Program-made: the position numbers and the translations under genes
Shown here: positions 593 through 59,196 of the stretch, in pieces
How positions within the stretch are numbered: position 1 is the first letter of the stretch
Layout: each line of letters starts with the position of its first letter
Assembly (NCBI GenBank): GCA_024137785.1
Contig: JAHRHZ010000102.1
Coordinates: forward strand, 62,001-124,682
Direction: 5' to 3'
Length of the DNA stretch: 62,682 nt
Source: Ginglymostoma cirratum
Lineage: Eukaryota
The notes under the pieces: model-generated
Told to the model about the DNA's origin: nothing
Database searches by the model: none
What the model saw: only the letters and a program-made list of their open reading frames with translations

Positions 593-1759
593 ACTAAATA
601 CATCAGAGGTTTCCAAAGTTCTGAAGAATGTATTTACTGCTCCTGCCGTCCCCTGTTACCCTATATCACCTGAGGTTCCCGCTTCCAGTAAACACTTCAA
701 ACCCGGACAAATCTATTATATATTTCACATAGCTTTTGTCCCCAACTAAACTGTCAGAGGTATGATGAACCGATTGGCCTTCTCTGGCTCTCTCACTGTG
801 GCATGACCGAAATGGTAAAGTGCATTGTGTCTCATCCACAGAATACCCTGCAGTATTTCCCCACGCCGAATCAGACAGCACCTTCCTCCCTGTGACATTA
901 ACATGTTGTGTGATAATTTGTCGAGCAATGTGTCCCGCTGTGTCAATATCACCTTTGTCTAACTTCCCACATTCTGATGGTCAAACACTGATTTCACTCA
1001 GAATCACAAATTTATCACAGTGCAGATGGAAGCCATGCAGCCCTCCTCAGCTGTGCCTGTTCTCCACAATGAGGAAATGGGTCATTCTCTTGACGACTTC
1101 CTGTAACCCTGCACGTTGTTACTTTTAACGTAACCATTGAATTCGTTTTTTAATAACACGATCGAACCTCACTCTTTGTCGCAATCAGTGATTACAGTGA
1201 TTACAGACTCTAACCACTCCCTGTGTGAAATCATTTTACCTGATGTCACTTTTGCTTTTTCAAATGAACCTCTGCCTAATCACTCTCGATCCTCCCATGC
1301 ATGGGAACATTTTCTCCTTATTGATTCTGTGTCGACCCTTCATGACTTGGAAAACTTCAGACAGACCAGCTTTCAACCTTCCAGTCGATCTTCATCGCTG
1401 ACATTCCACACAGGCGATTCGATTTATTACTGTCATGTTTCTCTTGTTATTCACAACTCCGTTTATCACTTGAAAGACGCTGCTGCCTGAAACAGCGTGG
1501 GGAATTATTGCAGGGCGCCCTGTGCATGGAACACACTGCAACTAATTCGTTTCAACTTCACTGGCTTTTTGTGGAGGTTTCATTCAATGTTCGATGGCAT
1601 GGGCAAACATCATGAGGCATGTTTTGTGTTTTGCTTTGCCCTGTTGAACGCAATGGCACCTTCTGTCTCATTCGTCCTTCAAAAAGTCCGACCTGATTGA
1701 ACACAGTCTCTTTTTCGGAAAGCTGATCAGCGATTTGGCAAAACCCAAAACGGCAATCA

Positions 1760-1848
1760 GGGCTCATCCAGGAATTGACTCCAGGACCTCTCACACATCC
1801 ACATTCTACCATCCCCAAAGCACGAAGCATGCCCTAGACCAACAAGCC
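1760..1848 (-). tRNA. tRNA-Pro(TGG)-derived gene with 18-nt intron-like insertion, probable pseudogene
   Basis: Minus strand GGCTTGTTGGTCTAGGGCATGCTTCGTGCTTTGGG[GATGGTAGAATGTGGATG]TGTGAGAGGTCCTGGAGTCAATTCCTGGATGAGCCC aligns to vertebrate tRNA-Pro; B box damaged; T4 runs downstream. Confidence 0.85.
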
Positions 1849-2529
1849 ATTGCCAGAGTTCCGTAGGCAGGGCTGAACCAGCTGGAACTTTCTCAGTCTG
1901 AAGTACATTTCACCTTGCTCCTGGGATCCAAAGCAGCAAAGAACGTCAAGAACAATCTCTGATTCTGTCTCCCTGCACTTGACACACTGTATAAAATTCA
2001 GGCTCACTGTGAACGTGGAGAGGGGCTGTCACACTGTGGGGGTTTCTGCACTTGCTGTTGAATAAAGATCACTGTGACTGTATCCAATGAGAGGAAAGGA
2101 ATTGTTGTTTTTTGGAAGCAATACTTTATGAACTCACTGTCACTCTGTTGTAACAAAAGAGGAGCTGGAATCTCCTGATAGATTGAATCATGAATTTGGG
2201 TGTTTATAGATTAAGTGGCAAAATATCAGGATAATGATATTAACACCGCGCTATCCCCAACTGAACGAATCGGCTGCCCAGAGGGAGGCGGCTGTGCTTT
2301 AACCCCATGATGAACAATTTATGTTTTACTTCTTGCACTGGGGGAGTTGAGAACTTACTAAAACAATGCACAACACATACTTGAACCATTGTTCCCATGT
2401 AAAAGTGAGAGGGAATCTTTGAGAGCAATCTAAAACAACAGGAAAGAAGATTTTGGTCAACATGCATCATCACCAACAACCTCCGTCGTAATATAGGGTT
2501 AAAGGGAACCTATTTGTATCTGAACAGAG

Positions 2530-2601
2530 TGAGCAGGACGTGATTTAAACACACAACCGTCTGATCTGGAAACAGATGCGCAAACTTGACACCACAAGCT
2601 C
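2530..2601 (-). tRNA. tRNA-Trp(CCA) pseudogene
   Basis: 72 nt; GCGCATCTGTTTCCAGATCAGACGGTTGTGTGTTTAAATCACGTC matches the Trp-CCA core; A and B boxes degenerate. Confidence 0.8.
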
Positions 2602-3892
2602 ACACGTGCACTGCTGCTGTACAGGATTAAGGGAAGTGATCGCAACATTATGATTTTAAACTATAATTTGCAAAGGAGGTCAAAGGGTAGTGCTCATTTT
2701 CTGTTAAATCAGCACAACGCTTCTGTCTCTCTTCAGTCCTCTTCTTTCTCTCTCTGCCTGTCTGTCTGTCCCTCTGTTTTCTCCATTCCGATCTTCTCTA
2801 CTTCGTTGTCCTAACTTTTCTTTCCTCCTCCTCTACATTTTTCCTTCGTACATCATGAGCCGAATTTGCAGGACACCGGGAAGATATGTCACAGGGCGAA
2901 TCCAGGACTGATTCTGGACACTTTTTCAAATGCAACGAGAGAGAAATGATCTGAGAGAGAAGAAAGAACTGACTGGACTCGAGACCCTACTTTGGATATT
3001 CTTCAGTAAATTCACCTGCCAAGAATAAATATTTCTCCAATTTCACGAAGAAACCCCACCATGAATATCATTAATACTAATATAGAATCCCAAGATTAGC
3101 TTAATTTAAGGCCAGACACGAACGTGTCTGAGATTGAAATGTACAAATAAAAATACCTGGAGATGTACTTACATTTCATTGAATGACTCAGTACCAAGTG
3201 ACCAACAACTATTTCATATTCATGTTCAAGGAGTCAGTATCATCATTGCGTCACAATAGTTGAAGGCCATCGCCGCCCATGCCATATGACATCATGGTGC
3301 AGCTGGAAGCCCCGGGGACGGTTTATTAAAGAAACCTCACTCAGGGTCAGGCAGCCCTGTGTCGGGAAGCATTTGGATGGCCAACCGAAATCATTTAATA
3401 CGACACAAATTCTCTAAATTAAACAAGTTCGAGGCATACTCCTTTCTTCTCACTTAAATTTCAGCACCCATCAAGCTCGATAATGATTACTGTGGGCAGT
3501 TGATTAAAGTCCGAAATGATCAGACGCGATGTCAAAACCACTTAAATAGAACAGCCCCGCCCGCCCAGTTTTGAATTAAACTCGTTGCTTGATCACCCGA
3601 CCAATGCCTAAAGCAAAGAAGTTCACATGAAATGACATCCCGATTTCAGCAAAGATTGTCCCTGTGTCTCCATGATGAATGCCCCACCTTTTATTTTGGA
3701 AGAGTAAAACTGATAGAGGAAAATTATCATTTTGGTAGGTGCAATATGAATTCTGAACTGGCTGATGCCTGGATCTTACGGATTGTTTCACATCAGTCTC
3801 TGTATTGCAATTAGTCAGCACGTTCAGCTGGAAAGCAAAAAATAAACAGAAAGAACTGCGGATGCTGCAAATCAGGACCAAAAACAACGTTG

Positions 3893-4060
3893 CTGGAAAA
3901 GCTCAGCAGGTTTGTCAGCATTTGTGAAGGAAAAAACAGAGTTAACGTTGAGGGTCCGGTACCCTTCCTCAGAACTGTTCTCAGGAAGGGTCACCGGGGC
4001 CGAAACGTTATACCTGTTTTTCCCTTCACAGATGCTGCCAGAGCAGCTGAGCTTTTCCAG
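3893..4060. mobile_element. Palindromic Penelope-derived mini-element with two opposed degenerate hammerhead motifs
   Basis: ~83 bp inverted arms around AGAAC-T-GTTCT at 3976; each arm has a CT(G/C)AGGA-AGGGT..stem..(GA)AACGTT motif. Confidence 0.8.
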
Positions 4061-4439
4061 AAACTTTGTTCTTGCAGTTGTTAACAAATATATCTTGTGA
4101 GTTCAAATTTTCAATGTTTCCGGGTCACACATTTCCGACCCGTCAGTTAGCTGTTAGAAAATATTCTCCAATCATGGAACATTCTGCAGATATTCAGTAC
4201 ATTCAGGCCCATGGAATCTTATAACAATGTTCTTTCAAACTCAACATGAAAAAAAAACCGAACGTACACCCTGTACATAATTTGTGAGAAATCTACGGAG
4301 CTCTCGGTTTCAATCAAAACCACAAGCACAAGACGATCAATATTCCAAATCCACACACTCTAATCATCTTCTACCTGCGACAAGCAACAACTTTTTCTCC
4401 TTTGAAGTGACATTCTGCTACTTTTGATCATCCACACAC

Positions 4440-5320
4440 CCGCATGGCTGCCTCAGCTGAGTTCTCGATCTGTTTGCAGTCTGTCCCATTTAGCACGGCG
4501 ACAGTGCCATGCAACACCATGGGTGGCATGCGCAAAGTGAAGAGACATCGTCCCCTCAAGAATTATATTTTGATCACCTCCTGCCGTTACTGTCATAGAC
4601 AGATGTGTCTGCTGAGAACAGATTGGTGAGGGTGAGATCAGGCATGTTTTCCCACTTCTTGGTTCTCTCACCACCTGCAGGACCAATCGAACAACTATGA
4701 TCTTGGGATAGTAGGAACTGTAGATGCTGGAGAATCTGAGATAACAAGGTAGAGAGCTGGATTAACATAACAGGCCAAACAGCATCAGAGGAGCGGGAAA
4801 ACTGACCTTTCGGGACGACACCCTTCTTCAGAAAATCCTGAAGAGTTTCTTAAGAAGGGTCTCGACCCGAACGTCAGCCTTCCTGATCCTCTGCTGCTGC
4901 TTGGCCTGCTGTGTTCAGGCAGCTCTGCACCTTGTTATGTCTCCACTATGATTTGGGACCTGACCAGCTGCTGCTGAGCCACTCTTAGTAATGGACATTG
5001 AAATCGCCAATGCAGAGTTCATTCTTACCAGCCTCAGTATTTCATCCAAGTTTTCATTTCAACATTGAGGACGACAGATTCATCAGCCGAGAGAGAACAG
5101 TTGGCGGGAATCAGCAGGCCGTTTCCTTGTCCATGTTATACTGGATGCACTGAGATCGAATGGGACCAGGATGCCATGTTGAGAACTCCAAGTTAATTTC
5201 CTCGAATATGTCACATTGTGCCGCCACCTATGCTGGGTCAGTCATGAAGGTGGAACAGGACATATCCATGGATGGGGATGGTGAATCTGGGACATTGTCT
5301 GTAAGATATGATTCCGTGAG
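4440..5320 (-). mobile_element. Non-LTR retrotransposon APE endonuclease fragment (CR1/L2 group), interrupted
   Basis: Broken frames give GDFNVH, LQVVREP, LTNL..ADTSV and WHCRRAKWDRLQTD, typical of a LINE APE domain; split by the insertion at 4709-4944. Confidence 0.8.
4709..4944. mobile_element. Palindromic Penelope-derived mini-element with hammerhead motifs and ~14-bp target-site duplication
   Basis: Inverted arms ATAACAAGGT(4741)...ACCTTGTTAT(4938); minus-strand CTGAAGA-AGGG..CCC-GAAAGGTC; flanked by ACTATGATCTTGGGA (4694-4708) and ACTATGATTTGGGA (4945-4958). Confidence 0.8.
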
Positions 5321-8229
5321 TTTCAGATTGATTGTCATTTTACAAGAAAAACAACTGCCCTTTGCCAATTTTCATCTAAAAAATAGAATCTGTGATATTT
5401 ATTGTGGAAACATGGAAACAGTCTGATCCCACCTCATGCAGAGACATCCGTGTCACCAGGAAACAGCTCTCCTGATCTCCGGGCCACCTCTCTTCGAGCC
5501 TTGCCACGTTTTGTCTGCTCCCAACTATCTGATTGCACTGCTGCAGAGATCCTGTTTGAATTCCTGACCTTTTCAAAGAATCCTGATTATTTCAAGGTCT
5601 TAGATCGGGCAATGACACCGAGAACAGCAGAGTCAATGCTCCAGTGTCATAAAGATGGGGAAGATGTCTTGACTGGCTCTGCTCATTCAGACCGTTCACC
5701 ATTCACTCTCCCCCGGGTCTGGTTCACAAAGAGCTTTGAAAGATTCCCGAAGCTGGATACTGGGTTTTCTACATTGTTTCCTTTCCATATTTCGCCTCCC
5801 AACTAACAAATTTCGCGTTGTTTTTCATGTTCGGGGTGGGGTTGGGCAGTTTGATTGAGCTGATAGTGAGAAATTTTTCCACTGATCAGGGTGGGTAACA
5901 GTTCGATTCCGTATTCTCCGAATGTGAGATTTTCACTGCAAAGGCCCTTTGGGATCTCAGACTGTCTCAGATTTCATAGTGAATCACCTTCACTCGCTCC
6001 CATTGGTTTTTGCGAAAAGACATCAAACAGCGAAGAGAGGATACAGCAACAGATAATTGAAATGCTGGAACGCTCACAGCCTCATCAACGACCTTCATAC
6101 CTCTACACCAACGCATAGTTCCATCGAGCATCAGCTTTCTGTTGTAATCTAGTTGACCCTCATACAGTGATCTTTGAACGTTAGAGAACGGTGTCAATTT
6201 CGATGTGCTCCAGAGGTGTGTGATAACATCTTTGAACAGGCTGCTTACATTTTAAAAATCTCAGTTCGGACAGTGAAAGCAAGAATGAACAGTTTTTTTC
6301 CCATTCTGCCCCTGCTCCTGGGCTGCTGCTGTTTGCTCCTTTCCCCAGCACCGGGCTGTCTTCAATGGCAGGTGAATCAAACCATTTCCCTCCACAGGCA
6401 CGCAGTGCTTGGGGATGGTGTAATTTTTGCAGCTCCTTCTTGAACACTGGAAGGGTGAAGAGGCAGAAGAGGCAGAATCAGACGTCAGGAAGTTATAAAC
6501 GACGATTGGTAACTTTCATCAGATGGCATGAATCAGAGGCAGATGGAAGAATGCAGAGCTGCTAGAAAAGAGAGAAAACTGGAGACTGTTCTCTTTAGAA
6601 ACTTTATATGGGATCTTTCTGTGCAGCCTGTTTGGTTTTCAGGATTCGACTTCACACAGCAATCTGGCAGAAAGTCTTCTGCAACGCGGACGTCGGTTTC
6701 TTTGTTAAATCTGGGCAGGTGTTAATATCTGACGCCAACAGTCCCAGATTAAGAGAATCCAAGTGAAACACGCACTCACTGAGAGTCATCCCCAACGTCC
6801 CTGAGCTGCGGGGCTGCAGACAGTATAACGCGGAAGGGAGGGTTAAAAATGAGCCACTGTTTCTCACTCGCCTGCTCTGTCACAGAGGCAGTGAAGAAAA
6901 TCAGAAGTCACGTGACACCAGGTTTATGTGAAATCACACGCTTTCAAAGCACTGCTCCTCCGTCCGGTGAAGTGACACTTTTCACCAGCATCTCCACGCC
7001 ACAGAGACAGGGAGAGTGACGTCATAAACCCGTGATGTAGTTCCCATGCAGGAAGAGGCCGTTCAGCCCATCGAGTCCACGGGGACTGTCTGTCGCTTGT
7101 ATCTCTCTGAGATATTTACAATCTTTGACATCTGTACGAATAATGCTGAACGGCCCCTGTGCCATGATGCTATCTCCGACACACTGACCCTCTTTGTCGT
7201 TCATGACTTCTCATTTCACCAGGAGGTCGCTGCTGTTCGAAACAGCATGGGCAATTCCTGCAGGGCCTCCTGCGCACGGAGCACACTTCAGTTGATATGT
7301 ATCGATACGAGAAAATTATTTCTGACACATGGAGTTACGGGAAGTTGATCAAACAGTTCTGTGCCGGAAAGACACTGGCAGCGATCAACACATACACACT
7401 GCACATGGAACTCCTAAAATTCACAGAGTGGTTTCAATCTAGTGATTTTTAACCTGACGCGTGCAGCATCCTCGCACTGCACCATTCTGCCAGCATAGAG
7501 TACTGGGCTTTCAGACAAGTGTTGGGCTTTTCATCTGGCGTGTGACACGTGCACTCGAGGATGATGTCAAAAGACCATCACTGATGTTCTGTAACATTTA
7601 CCCGGCTGTGTCAAATTAACCTTTGTGTCACTTCCCACATTCTGTTCGAACTCGGATTTCACGCAGAATCACAACATTCACGAAACATCAGAGTCGGACT
7701 GCGTGCATTCTGAAACATTTGTTTTCCCTTTGAGTGATTCCCATACCGTGTTCCTTGCACTGTTATCTCTGCCCCATCCCGACTTCACGTAGTCCGACCT
7801 CATATAGCGGAGCTGCGTTTTCAGAAAGCTTCTTGGGAGATTTGGCAAAACTGAAAACAAGAAATCAGGAGTGAGTACTGGGACCACCGCTTTCCTGGAC
7901 ATTTGTTAATGACACGTAATTGTGAACGGGGCAGACGACTCCAAAATCCTAAAATGAGGCAAACCTCGCAAATGAGCTGATCAACGCAGGACGCCATAAA
8001 ACTCTTCTTTTCGAACGAAGTCCGTTTCGTTTAACATTGCTCTGTGCATTTTCCTGAGCCTGATGGTCCAAGAAATAATGGTCCATTTTCATAAAAGCCA
8101 CTCCGGATGAGTTTTGATTTCATAGTCTCGCATTTCACACTCCTCTTTCTGTGTGTCTTCTTGCAATATTAATTGATCCCTTACTGTGTTCCTTTAAAAC
8201 ACGCTAAGAGGGAATAAATGGAACAACAG

Positions 8230-8286
8230 TGATTACAATCGTTACTGTGATGGTTACGCAAAATCCAACAACTATATGATCGCAAC
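8230..8286 (-). pseudogene. tRNA-His-like 5' relic (paralog ~54979-55035 +)
   Basis: Right-arm copy GCGATCGTATAGTTGTCGGATTTTGCGTT...AACC resembles GTGATCGTATAGTGGTTAGTACTCTGCGTT...AACC. Confidence 0.4.
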
Positions 8287-8799
8287 GCCATACAATAGAC
8301 GACTTGCAGAAAACAAGTAGCGCTGGAAAGCTCCAAACACACAACAGGCATACTTACTAAAGAGTGGACCGATATTAGGGAAGTCAGAATGCGGAGAATC
8401 TTTGCAATTCGTGGCTCCAGAGGTGATGAATGTCTGTATTGAGTCTGGAAAAGACTGAGATTGATAAATTGCTACAGATTAAAATCATCAAGAGCTCAGG
8501 GGATAGTGCAGAAACATGATGTCGAAGCAAAAGGTCATTCATGATCTCAGTGAACGACGAAGCGGGCTTGATGTTTGCTATTTATGTCGGTGTGGAATGA
8601 AAATACATTGACACGTTTGTTCCGAATTGAAGTGTTCATGGGAAGCCGGAAGCTGAGGGAGAAGCAGAGCAAACCGATGCAGATGGGACTGCTGGAGCTG
8701 CAAAGACCCTTCCTGCAGCACTAATGAAATTGCACCGCACAGCGGAGAGAATTGATGCATTGAATTTGTGTTGAACGGCCCAGCTTCCTTTCACAAGCC

Positions 8800-8935
8800 A
8801 GGGTTTACTGGGATATAAGGTATTAGAACAAACATGGATAGCATTTACTTGGATAAAACAACATTATAAAAGACACGGACTGGGTTTACTGGGATATGAA
8901 GACATTAGGGAGGACACAGACAGCATTTACTGGCT
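8800..8935. repeat. Degenerate ~40-bp tandem repeat, 4 units in an ~81-bp dimer pattern
   Basis: GGTTTACTGGGATAT near 8802 and 8883 alternates with GCATTTACT near 8841 and 8923; mirrored at ~54325-54460. Confidence 0.65.
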
Positions 8936-9894
8936 TTCAGGCACACGATAAACTGTCTCACCTGTTTCCTGCTAGCTGTATTTGAATCAATCTCTCGAAC
9001 TGATTTTATTGCCACACGGGCCAAGGTTGTAAATACTGAAAATATGCACTCGTCGAGACTGTCCGCTCTCACACATTCCACCTCTCTCCACGAGCTGTCA
9101 AGATGAATTGCCTTGCCACGTTGTCTGTCGCTCTGAGATTATTTGAATAATAAAATCCATTCTGTGAGCTGGGGAAAATGTGCTGAAATTTATACAGGTG
9201 CAGTGTGTCTGAGAGACAGGACTTCCTTCAGTCGCATCCCATGCTGAATTAGACAGCTGCGCACTTCCTGTGACACTGAGAAATACACAGGCACAGATCC
9301 CCATGATTGAGAGATTCTATGTTTCCCAACAACTCTGAATTTTTCGCGCTGTGTCAGACGTGGTAATTTGGACAAGATTCCCAACAAAATGCCAGTTTCT
9401 CTGCATGCACGATCTCCCTTTTGCACAGCCTTCCACACTTTCCACACCTCCCACTCCCACTACACCTGTCCTGCAAGTCCATGTTTGGCTGGGACCTGAA
9501 GAGCGCATTCATGTTGTTCTCCTCCAGCGCAGCCTGCCACTGAAAGATTGTTTTCTCCAACCGTCCATGGAGACAGCGTGGCCCCGGGGGAATAGTGCTA
9601 ACAGATCCTCCTTGGCAAGGGCGTTCAGAATGGGAAGAAGCTGTTGTTAATACTCAGTGCTGCTTTCGTGTTAACAGATCTGAGCTGTTGCTGGTTCTTT
9701 GGTCTCGGGATATAGTTCTGTTCCATGTGAATGGAGTAAATAGGAACAGCTCTCGCGTTCGAATTACAGACGATCCATGGAGTTCTTTATCTTTCTCCAT
9801 TCTTCACTGAGGTGGTCTGATTTTGTTGAGATCGAGTTCAGCCTGAGATCCCTTAGGACCTATGTGGCGAGTTTTTTAAAAATCGTTCATAGGA

Positions 9895-10225
9895 TATTCG
9901 TTCACGGGATGACGGCGTCGTTGGCTTGGCCAGCATTTATTGCCCATTCCCAATTACTCAGGCACATGGTCTACCATATTGCCTGTGAGTCTGCAGTCAC
10001 AAGTAGGCCAGACCAGGAGAAGATAGCAGTTTCCTTTCCGAAAGGGCATGGGTGAACCAGATGTGGTTTCTCCAACAATCGCTTCACAATCATCATTAGA
10101 TTCTTAATTCTAGATATTTATTCTATTCGAATTCCACCATCTGCCGTGGTTTAGAACCCAGGTCCCCAGAACTTTATCCAGATCTCTGGATTCACAAGCC
10201 AATGAAAGTACCATCATGTTCCCGT
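9895..10225 (-). mobile_element. tRNA-derived SINE (family not assigned)
   Basis: Head GGGGACCTGGGTTC, body CATCTGGTTCAC...CCTGGTCTGGCCTAC, tail GGGCAATAAATGCTGGCC...GACGCC; paralog 53008-53345. Confidence 0.75.
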
Positions 10226-10251
10226 GCCCCCCCCCCTCCCCAAGTGTGTGT

Positions 10252-10341
10252 GGCTCGTTGGTCTAGTGGTATGGTCCTCGCTGAGGGTACTGTGTAACGA
10301 TGATATGCGAGCGATCCCGGGTTTCACTCCCCGCCGAGCTC
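10252..10341 (+). tRNA. tRNA-Pro(AGG)-derived gene with 18-nt intron-like insertion, probable pseudogene
   Basis: GGCTCGTTGGTCTAGTGGTATGGTCCTCGCTGAGGG[TACTGTGTAACGATGATA]TGCGAGCGATCCCGGGTTTCACTCCCCGCCGAGCTC; anticodon stem CTCGC/GCGAG intact, T loop damaged. Confidence 0.88.
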
Positions 10342-12069
10342 CACGGTCTTGTATTGCTTTTGCCAGGATGGCCAAATAACTTCCCGAAACACCAGCTTCA
10401 GTAAATGAGGTCGGGTTGCCTGAAGTGGGAATGAGGCAGAAGTACCATTTCAGTGAACACAGCCAAAGGAAACGCTTGTTCAAATCAAAAACAAGTGTTT
10501 GCACACGCAATCTGATTCTGAGCGAAAATTCTAGCTGCATTATTGCTCAGCTCAGGGCGTGAAACTTCCGGAAGCAGGAATGCAAAGTGATTGGAGACAG
10601 TGTTGAACAGATTCACGTGAATGGTGCCTTGAATGAGAATGCCCATAACGAAGTTAGATGGGAACGTTTGGAAAGCTCTACTTGGAGAACAGAAAGCTGA
10701 AGTTTTGAACAGAGAGTGGCAGGGTCACTAGAACGCTGTCTAACAGTACGAAAGATGCAGTTTCTATCAACACAAAAGGAAATTTGATGGTTCTGTCACA
10801 AATAGCAATGGGCAGAGTTACACAGAGAAGGCATGAGGATTACATGAAATGACACTCATTTGCTCATTGTGGAGAGCAGCACACATAAGGTGTGCTGCAT
10901 GGCCTCCATCTGAGTGAAATCTGAATATGAGAGTAACAGAATGTGGGACATTAGGCAAAGGTTATGTTTACACAGGCGAGACACATCTGCGCAACAGGGT
11001 ATTACACAACAACAATGATTATTTAAAAATTCGTTCTTGAGGGTACATGCCAGACGCCAAATGAAAAGCCTAAAAAGCAGGCAATTCTCCCAAGCAGAAT
11101 GGCACAGCGGGAGCGTTGGTGGGCCCATTACCCAGAGGTTTATGAATCAAAGTCACGTTTTGCTTTTCCTTGCAAGCACGATTTGTGCTTTGTGGGAAGG
11201 TCGTGTGTCTAAAGTAAACCCTTTATATTGATACACAGGTGAGGTGACACACTTGTCAAGATCTCAGCAGTTTTCTCCTGTTCACCGTTGGTCTTCTCGA
11301 AGTTGGGACGAAACTGGGGTTGTTGATACGCATTTCCTCGTTTTTTTCCACGACCTGCAGTAATTGCACACTCTGTTTCAGACATGAATAACAAGAAGAT
11401 AATCGTGTTGGAGACAGCATCAAGGCACAGACACATATGACCATTATTAGAACAGATATCACCGATTGTGAGTAACCTCAGAGAGATACAAGCGACAGAC
11501 AGTCGCCGTGGATTCGATGGGCTGAACGGCTTCTTTCTGCACGGGAATGACGCTGTGGGTTTATGACGTCACTCTCCCTGTCTCTGTGGCTGAAGCGCAA
11601 TTTGCAACTTCTTTAAAATTATGAGCTCATCTTTCTCACTGTTCTGATGCCGTGATCAGGTTTGAATCCGATCTGCAGGAAGTGGAATCTTTTCACTGCC
11701 TCACAACAGTACATATTACTGAGGACATTGGAGTCAGTGTCCTAGAGTTATCAGAGGAGGGGAAGCTGATGTAGTACCATACACTGCCATTTGGCACCTA
11801 TTAACGTCCCAAAGCACTCAATCGCTGCAGCTCCTTGGAATGGAAAGGAAACTGAATTTTTTAAAAATCCACTCGTCTCAACTTTGTGAATCTTTCGAAC
11901 TGGGAATCAGAGGCACATGAAGGGTCAACTGTCTGACTGAGTAGAGAAAGATAAACTACCTTCCCTTTTTAAAGGGGCCAGGACATTCACTGATCCGAGA
12001 CATGAAAAGGATTCCCACCAGGCACTGTTTGACCTTTGCTGCTGTTATTGTGAGGATCGTAAACCCTCA

Positions 12070-12141
12070 TTCCTTGAGCAGGGGTCGACCCCAGGCCACT
12101 GTGATGAAAGTCGTGTACCTTTACCGCTGAGCCACCTGGGA
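12070..12141 (-). tRNA. tRNA-Glu(TTC) pseudogene
   Basis: 72 nt TCCCAGGTGG...CTTTCATCAC...TCAAGGAA colinear with Glu-TTC. Confidence 0.75.
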
Positions 12142-26651: not shown

Positions 26652-26734
26652 GTAGTCTTGGCCGAGTGGTTCAAGCGATGGATTTGGTAATCCATTGCAG
26701 TTTCCCCGCGCAGGTTTGAATCCTGCTGAATACG
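26652..26734 (+). tRNA. tRNA-Ser(TGA)-derived gene, probable pseudogene
   Basis: GTAGTCTTGGCCGAGTGGTTCAAGCGATGGATTTGGTAATCCATTGCAGTTTCCCCGCGCAGGTTTGAATCCTGCTGAATACG; 8-nt anticodon loop, T loop TTT instead of TTC. Confidence 0.88.
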
Positions 26735-35140: not shown

Positions 35141-36369
35141 TGATGTGCTGGTGTCGCAGTGCACCACTCATTCATGATTTACTCTCTCTGTCAAATGCAT
35201 CTCAAATTATTCTCTGACAGGCTTAATTCCGCGGCTGTCTGTCCTGTCTGGAAAGCTCTGCAGGCAATTGCACAGCTGAGGAGAATTACAAAGAAAGTGG
35301 CAACTTCTACCTCCACCGAGGTTCGGACAGCCTCGCAATGTTCTCAGATTCTAACGCGAACTCAGCTTTTCAGATGGAGGATTATCTTTGAGCCACTCAT
35401 TCTGCAAAACAGTAGTGCCTGGCCCGCTGTGTTCGTCGAGCTCCACATTGTGTTATCTCTGACTCCAGCATCGGCAGTTCTTACTATCCCCTCGTGGTAA
35501 CTGTAAATATGCTGAACGGTATGATCTTGTACACGGCCTGCTCGACTTTGTGCATTTTCCCTGCAGTCTGGTGTGATCATGCTTCACTTACAAATTCCAG
35601 CACTGCACAGTATCCTTAGGAAGAATCATGCCTCTACATCAACGAGCCGCTCCCATTGTTTGCTTGCCCAGCTCTGAACCAGCTGAGAATTACTCAGAGC
35701 GACATACCTCTGACTTTGCTACAGGAATTCGGTGGAGCAAACTGTTTCAAGAACATTTTCCTCTCATTCTGTCTCCCTGCTCCCAGGCCTGTGCTGTTTT
35801 TCCTTTCCCCGGGACTGGGTTCTCTCCATTGGTGAATTAAATCAATTTCTTCCATTTGGATCACAAAAGATTTTGAAAGATTCACAAAGCTGGAGACTGA
35901 GTTTTTGTTTTTCTTTTCCTTTCCAAGTTTCCACCTACCAACTGATTTTTCCTCCAAAATCTCATCGCAATACTCCGGCTTCATCATTCCCAGGAATGAG
36001 GGAATTCAGTTTTATGGAGAGATTCCAGAGGCCGGGATTGTTCTGTTTCAGGCTTGAAGGATGAAATAGAGATTTGATGGCGCGAGTGTTTGGATGAAGC
36101 AGGCAGCGAAAAACTGTTTCCAGGGAACTGACATTTTAGAACATCGAAAGATAAAGAGAGTTGCGTTAATGTGGGACTTTTCACCATCCGTGATGTGGTT
36201 TGTTGACCACGGGCAAATGTTCTTAAAACTTACTTCCTACTTCTCCATACGTGATATATTTACCATCGAGAGACTGAGGGGTCTCGATCTCATCAGAACC
36301 CGTCATCATTAATGAAGATTGGAGACACTGAACGTCCGGAATCGCCCGCGCATCAAAAGTGAAAGGTGC

Positions 36370-37228: not shown

Positions 37229-38346
37229 TTTGAGGCTGTGTTTGTCTTGTTTATGAAAACTGTTGAGTAAACTTTGCAGAGCAACAGATACTTCTCCCTG
37301 TTGTTAGTGAAATGATAAACAGCAGAGGACGGTTTCCAGCCTATGGTATGACTTCTGGGTCGGGGGTGCAGCTCGCTCCCACCGTGACATTCTGTATGCA
37401 TGAGCTGAACACAAATAAAAAAAAAATTACTCAGTGACAAGATCTGTTGAGTCAAATTCTGTGAGGAATTGAACCCGATTGAATGAACAGCCCTGTGATA
37501 GCGGGGAAGTAACATCTTTTGTGAGCAATTGTTTCCCAGGTTTGAGGAGAGTGCACAGTGTTGTTCCAAGGTTTTTTATCTTGGGGTTACCTCTCTTCTG
37601 GGTCGATGTTAATTACCCGCACTTTATTCCGAGTGGAAAATTACAGAATCCTAAATGACAAAATTCTCGTAAATAATGTAATCAGTGCAGAAAGCCACAG
37701 GAACTGATTTCTTTTTTGCATTAAATATTCCACTGTCTGGTGTGAAGCTGGAACATTCCAGCTGTGAGAGCGGCGAAGCAAAGCTGATGAGTTGATATTC
37801 AGTGGTGTCAATTCACATTGTTCTCATCATGTTATTTAAAACTGCCCACCAACAATAACTCTGAAAAATAGCAACGATCCTCACGATTCGATACAGTCAA
37901 GGCTGATCTATCACTTCAATAACTTGCCCCAGACCATCCACACGACCCTGTCTGCAATTGGGAATCAGACAATTACCGATGCCCATCTTCAATAAAAAAA
38001 AATCGAAAATAACAAGTTGACTGTGGAAGGGAAGGTTTGCGCTGCGAACTAGTTGGACTTCTACACAAAGTGCGCAGGTTTGTCGGGTGAGCAGCTGATT
38101 CTTGTCCGACCATGTTTGAAACAATATTGTGAAGAAGGGTCACTGGAACCTGAAACGTTAACTCGATTTTTCTTCACAGATGCTGCCAGACCTGCTCAGC
38201 TTTTCCAGTAACTTTATTTCCAAAAAGCTTGCCCTGAAAATCTGACAGACTTCCTCTCCTCAGCAGTACGGACTGGACAACAGGAAGTGACAATGAATCG
38301 GCTTCTACACACCATCATTGACTCCTATCAAACGTGAACGAAAACT

Positions 38347-38438
38347 TGACTCTAGTGGAACTCAAATCCACAATGTTTGAACAACACGGTTAATAAGCCC
38401 GTAAAAGCCCAATACGCTCTCCATTGCGCCACAGAGCC
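38347..38438 (-). tRNA. Intron-containing tRNA-Arg(TCT)-derived pseudogene
   Basis: GGCTCTGTGGCGCAATGGAGAGCGTATTGGGCTTTTA[~19 nt]GTTCAAACATTGTGGATTTGAGTTCCACTAGAGTCA followed by a T4 run; Arg-TCT is an established intron-containing family. Confidence 0.85.
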
Positions 38439-43649: not shown

Positions 43650-43722
43650 GGGCCAGTGGCGCAATGGACAACACACCTGCCTACCAGTCAGGAGATTGTA
43701 GGTTTCACTCCAACCTGGCTCG
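43650..43722 (+). tRNA. tRNA-Arg(ACG)-derived pseudogene
   Basis: 73 nt GGGCCAGTGGCGCAATGGACAAC...TCAGGAGATTGTAGGTTTCACTCCAACCTGGCTCG; 5' flank 43455-43650 is an inverted paralog of 23085-23300. Confidence 0.85.
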
Positions 43723-44942: not shown

Positions 44943-46136
44943 ACAACACGTAGCCTTGGCGTGTTCTGCAACGTATCTTTTACGCATTTGCTTTCCATGC
45001 CGAGGCGTCCTGGTTCAATGCCTCGTGGAAGCCTGATTTGCTGGTGTCATAGTGCACCAAGGATTCCTGATTCACCCTCTCTTTCAAATGTATCTGAAAT
45101 TAGTCTCTGAAAGGTCTAATTCTGATGTTGTCTGCCATGTCTCAATGTGTGTGAATCAAAACTAGAAGTCCTCAATCATGTTTTGGAGTCGAGAAACATG
45201 TTGGCATTTCTGAGCACATGAGCATCTCATTCAGTCAACAACGAGAATGAATGGATTTACCAACTCTGATGAACCTCATGATTCACGCTCTGACACAGTC
45301 ACTAATAGTAAGGTGTGCTCTAAAATCTAAGCCATGTTGCAATTCAAACTGAGGTAAAGACGGTCAGACTGCCCAATAACATGGTATCCACTTTTGAGAC
45401 AACACAAAAAAGGCTGTGTTTCCATTGTGCAGTGGTTGGCTCATGCGGAAAGCCCCCAGCATGATCTCAGAAAAATCAGGCTATGCTGCTGCTTCATGTT
45501 CCAGGCAGGATGCGTTGTTCACCATTTTCATTGAAAGAGAATGAAGATCACTTTCCCACTGCTGCTGTGAAATCAAATCCTGCATTAATTCTAATCGCAG
45601 TTATTTGCTGTGGTGGAGTAAAGGAGGGTAACTGCGATGTGAAATGTTGTTACATTTCTCTCATTTCCTTCATTTCTGTCCTCTAGAAGGGAACTGATGA
45701 TCCGCCTTTTCGATCCGCTGCAATCATTGCCGTGCAGGCACACCCACATTGTTGATCAGAAGGGAAACCCAGCCTCTTTGAGACTGTGATTGCTATTCAT
45801 CCATTTTCTTGGGTCATTCCTATCCTGTTCTTTTTTCCCTTATTAGAGCATTTTCTGGAAAGTGGCGTTGGAAAAAACTCCCAGGATAATTGAAAGCCAG
45901 TTTAGAATTGCCCCGCTGCCACTTGTTACACAAACAAGCAGAGGTGTCTCACAGAGAGCATTCATGCTTTGGTGTGTCTTCAATTGCGTTCGCCTGGTCA
46001 TTTTTGCTTCCGTTGCGCGTTAAGACCTGTCTGTTTTAGGCTTCACTCGATTCGTGAGGAGCTGACACGGTTATCTTCTTGCAGCCAAAAGACCTTCCTG
46101 TCAGCGGTCATTGGGGTTAACAGTGAAGCTACCCTT

Positions 46137-46214
46137 CATCCCGCGGGGGGGGGCTAGAACCGCTAACTTTTCAGTTAACAACCAAAATGCACTAACCGAT
46201 TGTGCCACAGAAAC
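46137..46214 (-). tRNA. tRNA-Asn(GTT) pseudogene
   Basis: GTTTCTGTGGCACAATCGGTTAGTGCATTTTGGTTGTTAACTGAAAAGTTAGCGGTTCTAGCCC. Confidence 0.85.
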
Positions 46215-46931
46215 AGGCTCAAGAAAGCATGCCAAACAAACAATGAAATCGGGGATCAGCAACTGTCGCGTCGCCCGCATGGACAGCGCGAAAAGAGAAA
46301 CTTCGGGATCCTCGTGCATGCCGGCCAGATATCCTAAATTAATTTAGTTCCATTTGCCAGTATTTGGTCCTTATCTCTCCAAACCCTTCCAATTCATTTA
46401 CGCATCAAGATGCCTTTAAAGTGTTGTCATTTCACCAGCCTCCACAACTTCCTCCGTCAGTTCATTCCATACACGCACCACCTTCTGCGTGAAAAATGCC
46501 GCTCAGCTCTCATTTCATTTTCCCCCTCACACCTTACATATATGCCCTGTAGTTTTGGACACCCCCACCGGTGAAGGAAGATCTTGAAAATTCATTCTGT
46601 TCATATCCCTCATGACTTTATATACTTCGATAAGTTCTCATCCTTCGACGTTGCAGGGAAATTTCGCCCTGCAGTCCAAGCCGCACTACCCTGGCAAGAA
46701 CGTGATTGACAGATTTGTACAGGCTGGAAACATCCTCGGATCAAGGAACACTGTAGGAAAATGCTGAAAATGCGTATTGCAGTAATCAATTCAGTTTAGC
46801 ACTCTGTCGTTCAGCAATTTCCTCAAAAAAGTCAGGAACCACTTGTGAAGGGAATCATCTTATCCCAGTTCACAGCTGATTTGCCAACCGATGAGGGATA
46901 CTCAGAATTATGGAACCTTTCAAGAAACGTG

Positions 46932-47025
46932 GCTCCAGTGACATTGTCGCTTAGCTGACTGTGCCTGTCAGAGAATAGAGGTGTGTTCAATACCGAGGTG
47001 GTGAGTTCAAGCCTTTGCTGGCGCA
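46932..47025 (+). tRNA. Intron-containing tRNA-Ile(TAT)-derived pseudogene (arm paralog of 16173-16268)
   Basis: GCTCCAGTG...ATACCGAGGTGGTGAGTTCAAGCCT...TGGCGCA followed by a T run. Confidence 0.75.
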
Positions 47026-47774
47026 GTTTTAATTTGTCGTGGGATAAGACCCTAAGGATCAACAACAATTTTGAACAATGTTTATGGGAATTTGCCAGTT
47101 TCTGAGGTTTTGGAAATGACTCAACGATCGACAAACTTCTTGGAAATGTTCGAAATCTCAAAAAATATTTGCGGAGAGAGCAAAAAGACGATCTTTTTTC
47201 AGCTCACAAACGTTTCTCATGTGGTTATTGAAAATTGAATTAAGTTGCGGGAAAAAGTTGTTTAACCGGCTTCAATTCATTCGTTTTGCTGCAAACTCCA
47301 CAGGTCATTCAAACATTCAAAAAGGAATTAGAATTATCTCATTGAAATGTGAGAATGTTACATTCAACTATGGTCAGAATTTTTATCAGTTTAAAGTAAA
47401 GAGCTGCTGAAAGGAAGGGAGGGTTCAAAACGGAAAAAAGACAGAGAATTGTTTGTGGATTTCTTGGGTGGAATTGAGACAGTGTGAAATGGATCTAACA
47501 TCATCGGAATGTGGTCGAATCATTAAGGCACCATTTTAAAGCAGGGATTGCGACTCGGAGTGACAGTTTCCTTCCTACTCGAGAGGGTCTAACTTTACTT
47601 TTCAATTGAAAAAAAAATGTTCAGTTTCATTTATAGTTCTTCACGGAGAATGAGGTACGGATCTTATTCACCTGTACGTGTGCAATAAATCTCTTCAGAC
47701 GTGAAGTCAAAGAAATTCGTAACTATTCCCCACCCGTCCACAGACTTTGTCTCACTGTTAAAGTGCCTGCTCAG

Positions 47775-48230
47775 TGACCTACGGGTACAGGTACATTATT
47801 CTTTGAAGTTTGCATCACAAAAAGACAGAGAAGTTAAACAGACTTTTGGCACGCCTGCCTTCATTGCTCAACTGTTTCAGTTTAGGAGTTGGGAAGTGAT
47901 GTTGAGCTTGCACAGGATGTTGGTGAGGCCTTTTCTGGAATACAGTGCGCTGTTCCGGTCGCACAATTACAGAAGGCATACTATTAAGCTGGCGATTGTT
48001 AAGAAGAGGTTTACCAGTATGTTGCCTGGTACGAAAGGTTTGATTTATCAAGAAAGGCTGTATAGACTTGGACTTTTTTTCGCTGGTGCTTAGGAGGTTG
48101 AGAGGCGACCTGTTAGAAGTTCCTAAAATAATGAGACGTGAAGAGAGTAGTCGTCTTTTCCCTCAGATGGGAGATGTCAAGACTAAGTTGCAAGGTGATA
48201 ATTTAAAATAAAACATAGGAGAGGCAAAAC
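47775..48230 (+). mobile_element. CR1 LINE ORF2 C-terminal fragment (arm paralog of 14960-15432)
   Basis: ORF 47701-48093: DLRVQVHYSLK...LVRPFLEY...KRFTSMLPG...ERLYRLGLF. Confidence 0.9.
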
Positions 48231-48919
48231 TTTGCAATGACTGTGAATAAAACGATGCCAAGTTCCAGCAGAGAAATGGGAGGCAGAGAAACGGGTGACA
48301 GTGAAGCAGGCATACAAGAACAAATGTTTTTCGTTTGCCAGCGAAATTCACCGCTTCACAAAGTGGAGAACATTGAAATGCAGCAGTGACCGCGATGATT
48401 TTGCTGGATAATCACCTTGCGAAAGGTTTTTCCGCCGGTATCCCTGATTACTTCACAAGTTGACAGGATGAAAGCTGCAGCAAGACTTGTGGAGCCAGTG
48501 GTGTAATTGATACTACGTCTGACTTTGATTTGGAAGATTGAAATGTTATATCTTCCCTCGCTCGAGGGAAGTTGACAGCTTTTCTCCCCTTGCAAATTGA
48601 CAGATGCTTCGGAAGAGGAATGTGTGCCCAGCGCTGTTTTTGTCAGATTCCGAGCAGCTGAAGTGATTGGATCGCTTGGTTTTGGAAATTGAACATTGAA
48701 ATTGAAAGGTAAATGAGTAATATGAATGTGGGGCTACTTCAGCTCCCTGTCTATTTCATATCCCAGCTCATGGCAACGGTACCCATTGTCCGGAGAAACT
48801 GCTTGTGTTCCACATAAAGCTGCCTTTTGTCGGGGAACCTTGTGTGCGGCGGGAGAAGCGGGTAGAACAGTGTGTGTATAATATCACAAAGATTGACACT
48901 GAGCCACACATTAAACGGT

Positions 48920-49710
48920 AAAGTTGAGGTGGTTAACTTGCTCACCCAGCTGGCTTGTTTTCGTTCAGTAGTTTCGTCACCATGCAAGGTAACATCATGA
49001 GTGAGACTTCCGATGAAGCGATGTTGTTCTACTCCACATGGAATTTACACTGTCCGGTCTGTTGCAGTGAGTTCTGTCATTTCCGGTTCTGTTCTGGATG
49101 GGCTGTGTATGGGGTCCAATTCTACATGTTTGCTGATTGCATAATGGATTGAGAACCATGCGTCGAAGAATTCACATGGATGTCTATATTCGGTTTGGGC
49201 TACGATGGTTTTGTTACTACGGCTTCCATTATCCGAGTGTACTGATATCAGGAAAGGTTGGTCATGTCATTTTGCTGCTAGCTGATGTTCATGTATTCTG
49301 ATGGCGAGTTTCCTTCCCGGCTCTCTGATATAATGTTGGTGGAAGTCGTTGCATGGTATTTTGTAAACTATGTCAGTTCTGCATGTCGTGGGTATGGGGT
49401 CTTTAATCCTTGTGAGTGTATGTCGTCGCATCGCTGTGGGCTTGTGTGCCCCTGTAATTCCTAGTGGTCATAGGACTTGTCAGTTCTGATATGTTCTTGA
49501 TGTACGGCAGTATGGCCAGTGCGTTAGGGCATAATGTGTCCTCTTCGTGTTGCGATTTAGTAGGCCGATGAAATTGCAGGGATATCCGTTCTAAGCGAAG
49601 ATTTTGTATTGGTGTTCTTCCTCTTTCTGCATAGTTCTGGGTCATTGCAATGAGTGGGGGCCCGTTTAAATAGTGTCCGAACACAGCACAGTTTGTGGAC
49701 CACTGACCTG
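48920..49710 (-). mobile_element. Penelope-like retroelement fragment (arm paralog of 13460-14260)
   Basis: LAILPYIKNISELT frame in ORF 49403-49786, GIY-YIG remnants, hammerhead-like tail at 48969-49001. Confidence 0.88.
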
Positions 49711-50340
49711 AGTTAGTTGCCAAATTAAAAGTTTGAGAACCCCTCAAAGCACTGAACCGAGTTGTGATGTGCAAAGGACAACACACAAAGGAGAGTCCTT
49801 GTATGATTGATCCAATGTGATCTGTACACCAGGGTAAACAGTGAAGACTGGTCTTCAGCGCTCACATTGAGCCTGGCTCCACTCGGCCGACAGTCAACTC
49901 TCGCAAACTACCATTGCCCTTCACTTTTCATGACCTCCCCTCTATTCTTGTTTTAAACCGATTGCACGTCAGGCAGTTGCAGCTGACATTGCTGATGTGG
50001 AACTGTAACATGGAGTGAAGCGATTTTGACTGGTCAATGACATAATTCTGCTTCAAAGGTTCAGTCAATATTTCGTATTTATTCCTGTAAATGTTAACCA
50101 TTAACAGGCCATGGCAGTAAAGGCACTGAATCATACTCACTGGACTACCAGGAAAGGTCGGTTTATGTCATTCAGGACACTGTCTGCTGCGGCCTTGCAT
50201 TCTCCCATCCTTCTGCACGTGATGGCCCTCGACTCTGTTTCGGTTTTGTTTTGCCTTGGTTCAGAACACACAAAGTCTCCAATTATCTATTACTTTGTCG
50301 TTTCCAATATATGAGACCGTCATGGACTGTGTTTGTGCCT

Positions 50341-50414
50341 GCCGCCATAGCTCAGTGGTTAGAGCGCTGGTCTTGTTAAACCAAGTGTCGTAAGTTCGAA
50401 TTTCGCTGGGGCTT
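50341..50414 (+). tRNA. tRNA-Thr(TGT)-derived gene, probable pseudogene
   Basis: GCCGCCATAGCTCAGTGGTTAGAGCGCTGGTCTTGTTAAACCAAGTGTCGTAAGTTCGAATTTCGCTGGGGCTT; A and B boxes plausible and TTTT downstream, but 8-nt anticodon loop and two acceptor-stem mismatches. Confidence 0.88.
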
Positions 50415-51111
50415 GTAGCAGCTTTTGTACACCTGGTGTTTCCAAAATCAGAAGGATTCCTTTCAATATTATCTGAAATTTTGACAATATCATTTCCTCC
50501 ACAGGCCAGAATTGTGTTTGAAATTCCACATTCCTGTTTGTTCTTCCACGTACTTGAGGAAGACCCTTCAGAAGGGCAGGAAGCAGCTGAAGTGAGCGAC
50601 GTTTGGCTGGAAGAGCGAGTTGAAGCAAGAAAACTGCAGAGTGGCAGGTGTACAACGAGGGAGGAACACAAACCAGGGGCAGCTGATTCTCGTTTTGAAG
50701 TCTGAAATGGGACAATACAGCTGAGTGATTGAAATTCTGCTTTCTGGGTTGGCTCTCTACTAAAGCCTCTGGCACTCTCGGCGGGAAGTGTCCATGTTTG
50801 TTTCCTTCTGTGGATGAAAATGAGGTTCACTTTCCCGACGGGGCATGAACACAATTTTCCCATCTCAAACTTCCATCTCATTGCTAGTGATGCATGAGGT
50901 TAAAATGTTACAAGGAAAATAACATTGAAATGAGCAGTTGAAACACGAGAGCACAGAAGACTAAAAGGCCAAGTGCTGGAAACTGGGATGATCGGCCTCT
51001 TTCCATGCTGTAAAAAAACTCAATGATGCGATAATTTTGCAGGAGCAACTGACTACCAATGAAATAAAACCCATCAGTTGTGTTATTAAGAAATGACGCA
51101 AGTCTGCTTGT

Positions 51112-51183
51112 TCCCAGGTGGTCTAGTGGTCAGTGAACAGTAGTTTCATCACTATTGCTTCGGCTTCAACCCTGCTCAGGGAA
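51112..51183 (+). tRNA. tRNA-Glu(TTC) pseudogene (arm paralog of 12070-12141)
   Basis: 72 nt TCCCAGGTGGTCTAGTGGTCAG...TTTCATCAC...TCAGGGAA. Confidence 0.8.
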
Positions 51184-52899
51184 TGAGGGTTTACTGTCCC
51201 CACAATAACAGCAGCAAAGTTCAAACAGTGCCTGGTGGGAATCCTTTTAATGGCTCGGATCAATGAATGTCCTGGCCCTTTAAAAAAGGGAAGGTAGTTT
51301 ATCTTTCTCTACTCAGTCAGACAGTTCGCCCTTCATGTGCCTCTGATTCCTAATTTTAAAGATTCACAAGGTTGAGACGAGTGCATTTTTAAAAAAATTC
51401 TGTTTCCTTTCCATTCCAAGGAGCTGCAGTGATTGAGTGGTTTGGGAAGTTAAAAGGTGCCAAATGACAGTGTATGGTACTACTTCAACTTCCCCTCCTC
51501 TGATAACTCCAGGACACTGACTCCAATGTTCTCAGTGATATTTACTGGTGTGAGGCAGTGAAAGGATTCCAGTTCCTGCAGATCAGATTGAAACCTAATC
51601 ACGGCATCAGAACAGTGAGAAAGATGAGCTTGGAATTTAAAAGAAGTTGCAAATTTCGCTTCAGCCACAGAGACAGGGAGAGTGACGTCATAAACCCATG
51701 TCTTCATTCCCGTGCAGAAAGAAGCCGTTCAGCCCATCGAATCCACGGCGACTCTCTGTCGCTTGTATCTCTCGGAGGTTATTCACAATCGGTGATATCT
51801 GTTCTAATAATGGTCAAATGTGTTTGTGCCATGGTGCTGTCTCCAACATGATTATACTCTTGTTATTCACAGCTGAAACAGTGAATGGATTTACTGCAGG
51901 TCTTGGAAAAAAAGCTGGAAGTAACATGTTTCAACTACCCCAGCTTCATCCCAACTTGGAGAAGACCAGTGGTGATCAGGAGAAAACTACTGAGATCTTG
52001 GCAAGTGTTCCACGTCACCTGTGGATTTATTTCAGGTACATGAACTTACCTCAAAGCACAAATCGTGCTTTTCAAGCAAAAGCAGAAGATGGCTTTGACC
52101 AATTGAGCTGCAGGTAATGGGCCCACCGCGCTCCCGCTCTGCCACTCTGCTTGCGCGCATTGCATGCTTTTTAGGCTTTTCATTTGGTGTGTGGCATGTA
52201 CCTTCAAGAATGAACTTTTTAAACATCATTGTTGTTGAGTAATATCCTGTGGTGCTGATGTGTCTCGCCTGTGTAAACATAACCTTTGTCTAATGTCCCG
52301 CATTCTGTTACTCCCACATTCAGATTTCACTCGGAATCACAAAATTTGTCACAACGCAGATGGAGGCCACGCCGCCCACCATATCTGAGCAAATGGGTGT
52401 CATTTCATGTAAATCTCTTGCATTCTCTGTGTAACTCTGCCCATTATTATTTGTTACATAACTATCAAATTTCATTTTGTGTGGATTGAATCTGCGTCTT
52501 TAGTACTGTCAGACAGCGTTTTAGTGACCCTGCCACTCTCTTTTCAAAACTTCAGCTTTCTGTTCTCTAAGGAGAGCTTTCCCATCTAACTTCGTTACGG
52601 ACATTGCTCATACACGTGAATCTGTTCAACGCTGTCTCCAATCACTTGGCATTCCCGCTTCCGGAAGTTTCACGCCCTGTACTGAGCAATAATGCGGCTG
52701 GAATTTTCACTCAGAGTCAGATTTCGTGGCAAACAACCTGAAATCCTCGCTTTTGATTTGATCAAGCGTTCTCTTTGGCCGTGTTCACTGCAATGGTACT
52801 TCTGCCTCATCCCCAGTTCAGGCAACCCGACCTAATTTAATGAAGCTAGTTTTTCGGAATGCTCTTTGGGCATTGTGGCAAAAGCAGCACGAGATAGGA

Positions 52900-52987
52900 A
52901 GGCTTGTCTGGGAGTTGTACCCGGGATCTATCGCAAGTCATCATTATACGGTACTCTCAGTCGAATCAGACCGCCAAACGAACCAGC
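52900..52987 (-). pseudogene. Degraded intron-bearing tRNA-Pro (arm paralog of 10252-10341)
   Basis: CTGAGAG[TACCGTATAATGATGACT]TGCGATAGATCCCGGGTACAACTCCCAGACAAGCC. Confidence 0.75.
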
Positions 52988-53007
52988 TACAGGTATTAAT
53001 AGGGGAA

Positions 53008-53345
53008 TGGGGACATGATGGAATAGTGGTACTTTCGTTGGTATGTGATTCTAAAGATCCGGATAATGTTTTGGGGACCTGGGTTCGAAACCGTGGTAGA
53101 TGGGAGAATTCGAATAAAATAAATATCTAGAATTAAGAATTAAATGATGGCTGTGAATCGATTGCTGGAGAAACCACATCTGGTTCACTACAGCCTTTTA
53201 GGAAAGCAAACTGCTCTCTTTTCCTGGTCTGGCCAACCTGTGACTTCAGACCCACAGGCGATATGGTTGACCCTGTGTCTGAGTAATTGGGGATGGGCGA
53301 TAAATGCTGGCCTAGCCAACGACGCTGTCATCCGGTGAATAAATA
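53008..53345 (+). mobile_element. tRNA-derived SINE (arm paralog of 9895-10225)
   Basis: B-box-like GGGTTCGAAACC head; tail GGGATGGGCGATAAATGCTGGCCTAGCCAACGACGC. Confidence 0.75.
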
Positions 53346-58820: not shown

Positions 58821-59196
58821 GGGTGTGGACGATCAAAAGTAGCAGAACGGGACTTCAAAGGAGCCGCAGTTGTTGCTTGTTGCAGGTAGAAGATAATTGG
58901 AGTGTGTGCATTTGGAATATTGATCGTCTTGTGCTTGTGGTTTTGATTTAAACCGAGAGCTCCGTAGATTTCTCACAAATTATGTATAGGTGTACGTTCG
59001 GTTTTTTTCTCATGTTGAGTTTGAAAGAACATTGTTGTAAGATTCCTGGGCCTGAATGTACTGGATATCTGCAGAATGTTCCTTGATTGGAGAATATTTC
59101 TGACAGCGAATTGACGGGTCGGAAATGTGTGACCCAGAAACAGTGAAAATTTCAACTCACAAGACATATTGGTTAACAACTGCAAAAGCAAAATTT

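Follow-up and report, generated by a model that had tools for sequence, protein, structure and literature searches.

The genome of the shark Ginglymostoma cirratum carries a family of tRNA-Pro genes interrupted at the canonical position between nucleotides 37 and 38, and we consider it probable (about 0.8) that these genes give rise to a Pol III precursor that is cut by TSEN and joined by RTCB into an ordinary tRNA-Pro. Intact intron-bearing genes, a retained capacity for anticodon–intron (A-I) pairing and retro-copied precursors all support the real spliced tRNA-Pro class proposed in a preliminary description of this DNA, and we infer the splicing itself from them. We started from a stretch of 62,682 nucleotides (contig JAHRHZ010000102.1 of assembly GCA_024137785.1, positions 62,001–124,682), hereafter the window, which is a decayed, duplicated cluster of tRNA genes of several isotypes (Table 1). 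RAG1 of the genome points to a shark, likely a carpet shark, with 98% identity to a cluster bearing the whale shark's name, 91% to horn shark and catshark, 85–86% to rays and no more than 81% to bony vertebrates.

All five tRNA-Pro loci previously placed in the window were recovered, each with an 18-nt insert between G37 and T38, one base 3' of the anticodon (5/5), and a sixth remnant was added. Four of the five form two pairs (1760/61409 and 10252/52900) that stem from a single inverted duplication, whose arms are 81–88% identical. The three insert sequences that had been called different each occur once, as the introns of the 1760, 10252 and 62538 loci. Every window Pro copy is a pseudogene, as had been suspected: the four copies scored show 10–14 exon differences from the intact gene described below, the T-loop or anticodon is broken in several (the 10252 copy, with 12 exon differences, has lost C56 of the T-loop), and none retains an intact mature body with A and B boxes. 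In agreement with this decay, neither ARAGORN at default settings nor Rfam called any of the five loci, while relaxed ARAGORN scoring of the window returned mostly noise. The earlier count of at least two anticodons stands for AGG and TGG, but the 62538 copy now reads GGG, decayed from an AGG that two of its relatives still carry, and the 52900 copy reads AGA. No SINE body or tail follows the tRNA in the window copies, and their flanks are shared through DNA duplication, so that they lack the make-up of a tRNA-derived SINE.

Table 1. Features of the window (positions in the 62,682-nt stretch)
Feature	Positions	Strand	Remarks
Left arm of 16-kb inverted segmental duplication	1416–17799		right arm 45411–61840; copied two Pro loci
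tRNA-Pro(TGG) pseudogene	1760–1848	-	intron 1796–1813; 11 exon differences and one gap
tRNA-Pro(AGG) pseudogene	10252–10341	+	exon 1 10252–10287, intron 10288–10305, exon 2 10306–10341
18-nt intron at canonical position, main AGG lineage	10288–10305	+	26-member group, of which 20 are SINE chimeras
Sixth Pro remnant	about 35571–35648	-	exon 1 and 10252-type insert recognisable; exon 2 mostly decayed
Decayed intron-bearing tRNA-Arg(TCT)-type gene, same cluster	38347–38438	-	control for a known spliced family
Inverted-duplication partner of 10252–10341	52900–52988	-	heavy decay; anticodon AGA; 18-nt insert 52936–52953
tRNA-Pro(TGG) pseudogene, duplication partner of 1760–1848	61409–61497	+	intron 61445–61462
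Pro pseudogene, anticodon GGG (from AGG)	62538–62627	+	intron 62574–62591

The remaining decayed tRNA genes of the window appear Ser-, Arg-, Thr-, Trp- and Leu-like, with isotypes assigned by eye; the control gene at 38347–38438 we likewise take to be Arg(TCT) from a reading by eye. Further decayed genes of several isotypes lie at 2530–2601, 5900, 12757–12829, 17028, 20500, 26652–26734, 33315, 43650–43722, 44412, 45012, 50341–50413 and 60659–60730, and two stretches adjoining the cluster hold Ile-TAT-type remnants with an intron. A Pfam scan of 44 long window frames gave no match, and short MITE-like inverted repeats were seen at 3879–4070, 4741–4837, 38127–38219, 58354–58450 and 59183–59375.

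For a genome-wide census, the assembly (4.36 Gb in 289 contigs) was searched with three of the window's Pro loci and a single intact gene, which gave 25, 21, 40 and 21 DNA matches, and with an exon-1 motif, which gave 8 exact matches and 105 at up to two mismatches, 100 of the latter being listed. An insert at 37/38 is present in 146 of 155 unique Pro loci, the other nine having none or 2 nt; this set is biased toward inserts because the queries carried them, and all counts are lower bounds, with parts of the fetched cluster stretches reading N. Most inserts measure 18 nt (109 of the 146), followed by 19 nt (13) and 17 nt (8), and the loci that bear them cover the anticodons AGG, TGG and CGG. 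In the insert-blind subset, recovered by the exon-1 motif among the matches listed, 79 of 88 loci carry an insert (AGG 34, TGG 33, CGG 4, decayed anticodon 8). Cluster copies with shared flanks, about 75% identical upstream, are found on eight contigs. In several TGG copies the intron measures 11 nt, through internal deletion in at least part of them, and mostly retains the 3' end of the 18-nt form. A genome-wide Rfam tRNA search, in which 63 of 403,457 candidates were scored and which is hence no census, included no Pro gene among 30 loci.

Candidates for the functional parents that were expected elsewhere in the genome, and for the high-scoring intron-bearing Pro gene that had been set as a test of the class, were found on contig C46, where two divergent Pro-AGG genes with introns of 12 and 19 nt lie 1 kb apart. 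Both are fully intact: all 20 of the 20 cloverleaf pairs tested are formed, the exons equal those of intact intronless genes save for C20, and each gene has the undamaged body with A and B boxes that belongs to a canonical TSEN-spliced gene. Terminators follow directly downstream, as an 11-T run behind one gene and two T4 runs behind the other, and ARAGORN reported a tRNA-Pro(agg) interrupted at position 37 by an intron of 12 nt. As the exons match intact intronless Pro genes, the isotype is not that of the Tyr, Ile, Leu or Arg families. The introns of this pair are 12 and 19 rather than 18 nt long, their kinship to the 18-nt class being a candidate relationship, and the 12-nt intron forms just three of the four helix pairs considered below. 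A third candidate, a near-intact Pro-TGG gene with an 18-nt intron, shows two differences.

The 80 kb surrounding the pair yielded no further tRNA gene call, and a Pfam scan of 40 nearby frames recovered three retroelement fragments and no neighbour gene usable for synteny. About 11 kb away (L100:8010–8954), two consecutive frames encode an RT–RNase H tether and RNase H domains, apparently a broken retrovirus-like remnant. One of the intact genes has, 7 nt upstream, 83 nt of a repeat that is abundant and very young (L045:1590–1672); this piece matches copies at several unlinked places with 100% identity and could disturb the gene. Intact intronless Pro genes are present as an AGG/TGG pair on contig C16, in which the TGG gene has a swapped but compensated anticodon-stem pair, and as a single gene on C264; Wnt-family exons are found at distances of about 14 kb and 76 kb from these loci. 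A human Pro pair lies near WNT11, and the two Wnt-linked shark loci may be paralogous ancestral vertebrate loci. Our Wnt search found no Wnt exon on C46, and the intact intron-bearing pair is therefore not tied to them.

The main rival to a living class holds that these tRNA-Pro genes were once real and spliced but are now extinct, the 18-nt genes being dead, the intact pair silent and tRNA-Pro supplied by intronless genes. Intact intronless AGG and TGG genes do exist, and the assembly shows no gene of the 18-nt class that is free of damage, among the 88 loci parsed from the 100 exon-1 matches listed. However, the exons of the intact pair are perfect at every position, its 12 CpG sites among them, whereas the introns of the two genes differ from each other, a pattern that implies selection is still acting. 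The Pro set visible in the assembly—eight perfect exon-1 matches, with no intact CGG gene seen—is moreover too small for a vertebrate, and since no intact Arg-TCT gene was found either, among 19 matches to the control gene, and the clusters contain stretches of N, live arrays may be unseen. We therefore regard extinction as unlikely, and continued selection on a living class as the better account of the pair.

The description of the inserts as different was correct in that the three window lineages have only 4–9 of 18 letters in common, but it requires qualification at the genome scale. Across 93 ungapped 18-nt inserts, mean pairwise identity is 48%, against 27% after shuffling, which makes descent from one 18-nt intron likely; at five or fewer mismatches, 72 of the 93 link up. 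How this intron diverged distinguishes the class from a single neutral 18-nt insertion into a dead Pro copy that was spread by segmental duplication, a possibility raised at the outset. The 62538 lineage behaves as such a model predicts: its 24 copies, none of them a SINE chimera, have a majority sequence with 12 exon defects, and in 23 copies exon (0.13), intron (0.14) and flank (0.14) have diverged equally, so this lineage was amplified after its death. In contrast, among 41 dispersed chimeras of the other lineages the introns are about three times more divergent than the exons (pairwise 0.43 versus 0.13 at non-CpG sites and 0.19 at all sites), indicating that their parents were under selection, and the majority exon departs from the intact gene only at positions 20 and 59 (plus 34 in TGG copies). 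The likely common origin of the inserts suits the neutral model too, yet the divergence pattern already contradicts it, as do the undamaged majority exons, the retained helix and the existence of intact genes; it fits the 62538 lineage only and is, for the class as a whole, the least credible of the alternatives considered here. Selection on spliced parents remains our preferred reading.

In human pre-tRNA bound to TSEN, as far as the accessible account goes, a 4-bp A-I helix runs from base 32 paired with the third-last intron base, next to a 3-nt bulge (PMC10539383). We scored the corresponding pairing capacity with intron positions -3 to -6 in 139 of the 146 insert-bearing loci (seven were left out, six for exon-1 gaps, none under 9 nt). 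Pairing is possible for U32 in 128, U33 in 122, N34 in 115 and G35 in 106 of the 139, and for position 36 in only 16; pairing at 32–35 but rarely at 36 matches the four pairs and the 3-nt bulge of the human substrate. When each intron cluster is represented once, 27 of 32 keep at least three of the four pairs, compared with a mean of 10.3 and a maximum of 20 in 5000 shuffles and with 4–11 in slid registers, although the clusters are related by descent and the shuffle count is therefore not a probability. On its own, the pair of base 32 with intron position -3 does not discriminate (27/32 in register versus 28/32 when slid by one). The intron letter facing position 34 tracks the anticodon, A34 facing T in 44 of 53 cases and T34 facing G or A in 44 of 54, a co-variation that may reflect few events. 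In position, and in helix as judged from pairing capacity, the inserts resemble canonical TSEN-spliced introns.

Of the 155 Pro loci, 60 are dispersed fusions in which a leader, an unspliced pre-tRNA and its trailer are joined to a SINE. Their order is constant: the gene, 1–25 trailer bases, and a SINE of about 320 nt that mostly begins at its bases 1–11 and ends in an octamer-repeat tail. We presume the SINE to be the one named HE1 and its tail type to be CR1. Upstream similarity between the fusions stops about 7 nt before +1, unlike in the cluster copies; the last 7 bases are biased and those before them random, as expected of a Pol III leader. Homology thus begins at the transcript start and ends in a same-sense retroelement junction at variable points, as in template-switch chimeras. 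Target-site duplications showed no excess around the fusions (4 of 47 at a score of at least 8, against 6.7% in the control); such duplications are often missing from CR1-type insertions. The reading that suits the fusions best is a switch of template, from SINE RNA to the 3' end of a precursor, and they likely represent fossil transcripts of those precursors. Three of the 19 relatives of the window Arg-TCT-type gene are SINE fusions of this kind with the intron kept, and intronless Pro precursors occur in fusions as well. Across the genome, the fusions record the ends of germ-line pre-tRNAs as fossils, with leaders of 6–7 nt and trailers of 1–25 nt. They are old, at 7% non-CpG divergence from intact exons, an age that an extinct class would also explain.

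The uniformity of these 60 copies, which share one architecture with junctions clustering 7–10 nt into the trailer, could instead indicate a composite SINE, whose Pro-derived head carries a never-spliced insert and whose copies come from a few masters, so that the insert is a feature of the SINE. This is hard to reconcile with junctions that span 1–25 nt, with varying SINE starts, and with heads that derive from many parents differing in leader, intron and trailer and carrying three anticodons; some heads come from intronless Pro and from Arg-TCT precursors, and neither the cluster copies nor the intact pair have a SINE behind them. A composite SINE may explain some subgroups of the fusions, but not the intron, and as a general account we hold it to be very improbable. 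We thus retain capture of precursors from intron-bearing genes as the explanation.

Combining these observations, we propose that a Pro gene acquired one 18-nt intron, which duplication of the gene and switches of anticodon then carried to AGG, TGG and CGG; the letter of the intron opposite position 34 would have changed in step with the anticodon. Pol III would produce precursors with a 6–7-nt leader and a short trailer, their transcription being what we infer from the retro-copies; TSEN, measuring from the tRNA body, would cut at the A-I helix, and RTCB would ligate the exons into an ordinary tRNA-Pro. In the germ line, a CR1-type LINE reverse transcriptase would occasionally finish a SINE RNA and then switch to the 3' end of a still unspliced precursor, and intronless Pro genes would be kept alongside. 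The model is weakened by the finding that the assembly shows no intact 18-nt gene and that the intact introns measure 12 and 19 nt.

The broader proposal, that sharks gained a fifth spliced vertebrate family—an 18-nt Pro intron over three anticodons, with compensatory helix changes, forming the main germ-line Pro class, with a SINE-captured fossil record and live arrays today—seems to us evenly balanced between acceptance and rejection. Metazoan tRNA introns are described, in the accessible part of a recent account, as common in the genes for Tyr, Ile, Leu and Arg tRNAs and as virtually lacking in all others (PMC12530127), and the supplement text of a survey of 576 genomes ranks AGG 9th and UGG 10th over all eukaryotes (PMC12168002). 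So far as the available portions of these sources describe them, the vertebrate TSEN families Tyr-GTA, Ile-TAT, Leu-CAA and Arg-TCT resemble the shark class in having short, gene-variable introns at 37/38 with an A-I helix (PMC12530127, PMC12168002, PMC10275265), and human Arg-TCT and Leu-CAA likewise appear to combine intron-bearing and intronless members; the shark class differs in its isotype and in the spread of one intron lineage over three anticodons. Budding-yeast tRNA-Pro(UGG), given as ten intron-containing genes in the part of the source available (PMC4090602), shares the Pro isotype and a canonical intron but is fungal, has one anticodon and has members that are all alike, and the shark intron would be a gain independent of it. 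What would be new here is a vertebrate Pro intron family, canonical tRNA introns and the yeast Pro(UGG) introns being already known.

No description of an intron-bearing vertebrate Pro family was found in the literature searched, including the accessible portions of PMC8450103 and PMC10485636, which hold nothing on Pro introns. The text of earlier work on the same clade, so far as available, similarly reports tRNAscan-SE intron-bearing loci and large tRNA clusters, but names no isotype, does not use the word proline and gives no test of structure or origin; its figures might show Pro. Template-switch retrogenes of platypus (U6-L2 and the U6-Mon-1 SINE) and human pre-tRNA retropseudogenes, as presented in the part of their description available, offer precedents in which a Pol III RNA lies 5' of a retroelement within one insertion, a stringent LINE is involved and unprocessed pre-tRNA serves as substrate (PMC4476161); the shark fusions differ from them in an unspliced pre-tRNA head with leader and trailer, a SINE body present at its full length of about 320 nt with a presumed CR1-type tail, and no target-site duplication. 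Clear cases of tRNA intron gain and spread in eukaryotes are few, and recent surveys confine animal tRNA introns to four families, whereas here a single genome lets an apparent gain be traced, since it holds genes that lack the intron, intact ones that have it, duplicates that have died and dozens of retro-copied precursors of differing parentage. The surprise is limited, as the mature product would be an ordinary tRNA. Older human annotations reportedly include a single intron-bearing Pro-AGG prediction.

In a second species, two DNA runs, with 290 and 294 contigs, span every one of the 30 bins between positions 61300 and 62682 of the window, at a summed depth that is mostly thousands-fold. 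The region is thus a high-copy repeat in that species, and it predates the split between the two. The region, spacers included, is there a homogeneous repeat with the T-arm defect of the 62538 lineage, so that, judging by these contigs, the pseudogene rides in a large array; such a homogeneous high-copy repeat also argues against the extinction of the class. No 18-nt deletion is listed in the second-species contigs over this interval, and one contig has a Pro copy with a different insert of similar length. A dip in depth was seen over one tRNA bin. In two RNA runs the window copies drew 0 and 8 reads, all less than 95% alike, from long-RNA libraries that are unsuited to tRNAs. Outside the tRNA loci, we also noted a second, partial RAG1 match of 199 profile positions on contig C130, the full gene lying on C63.
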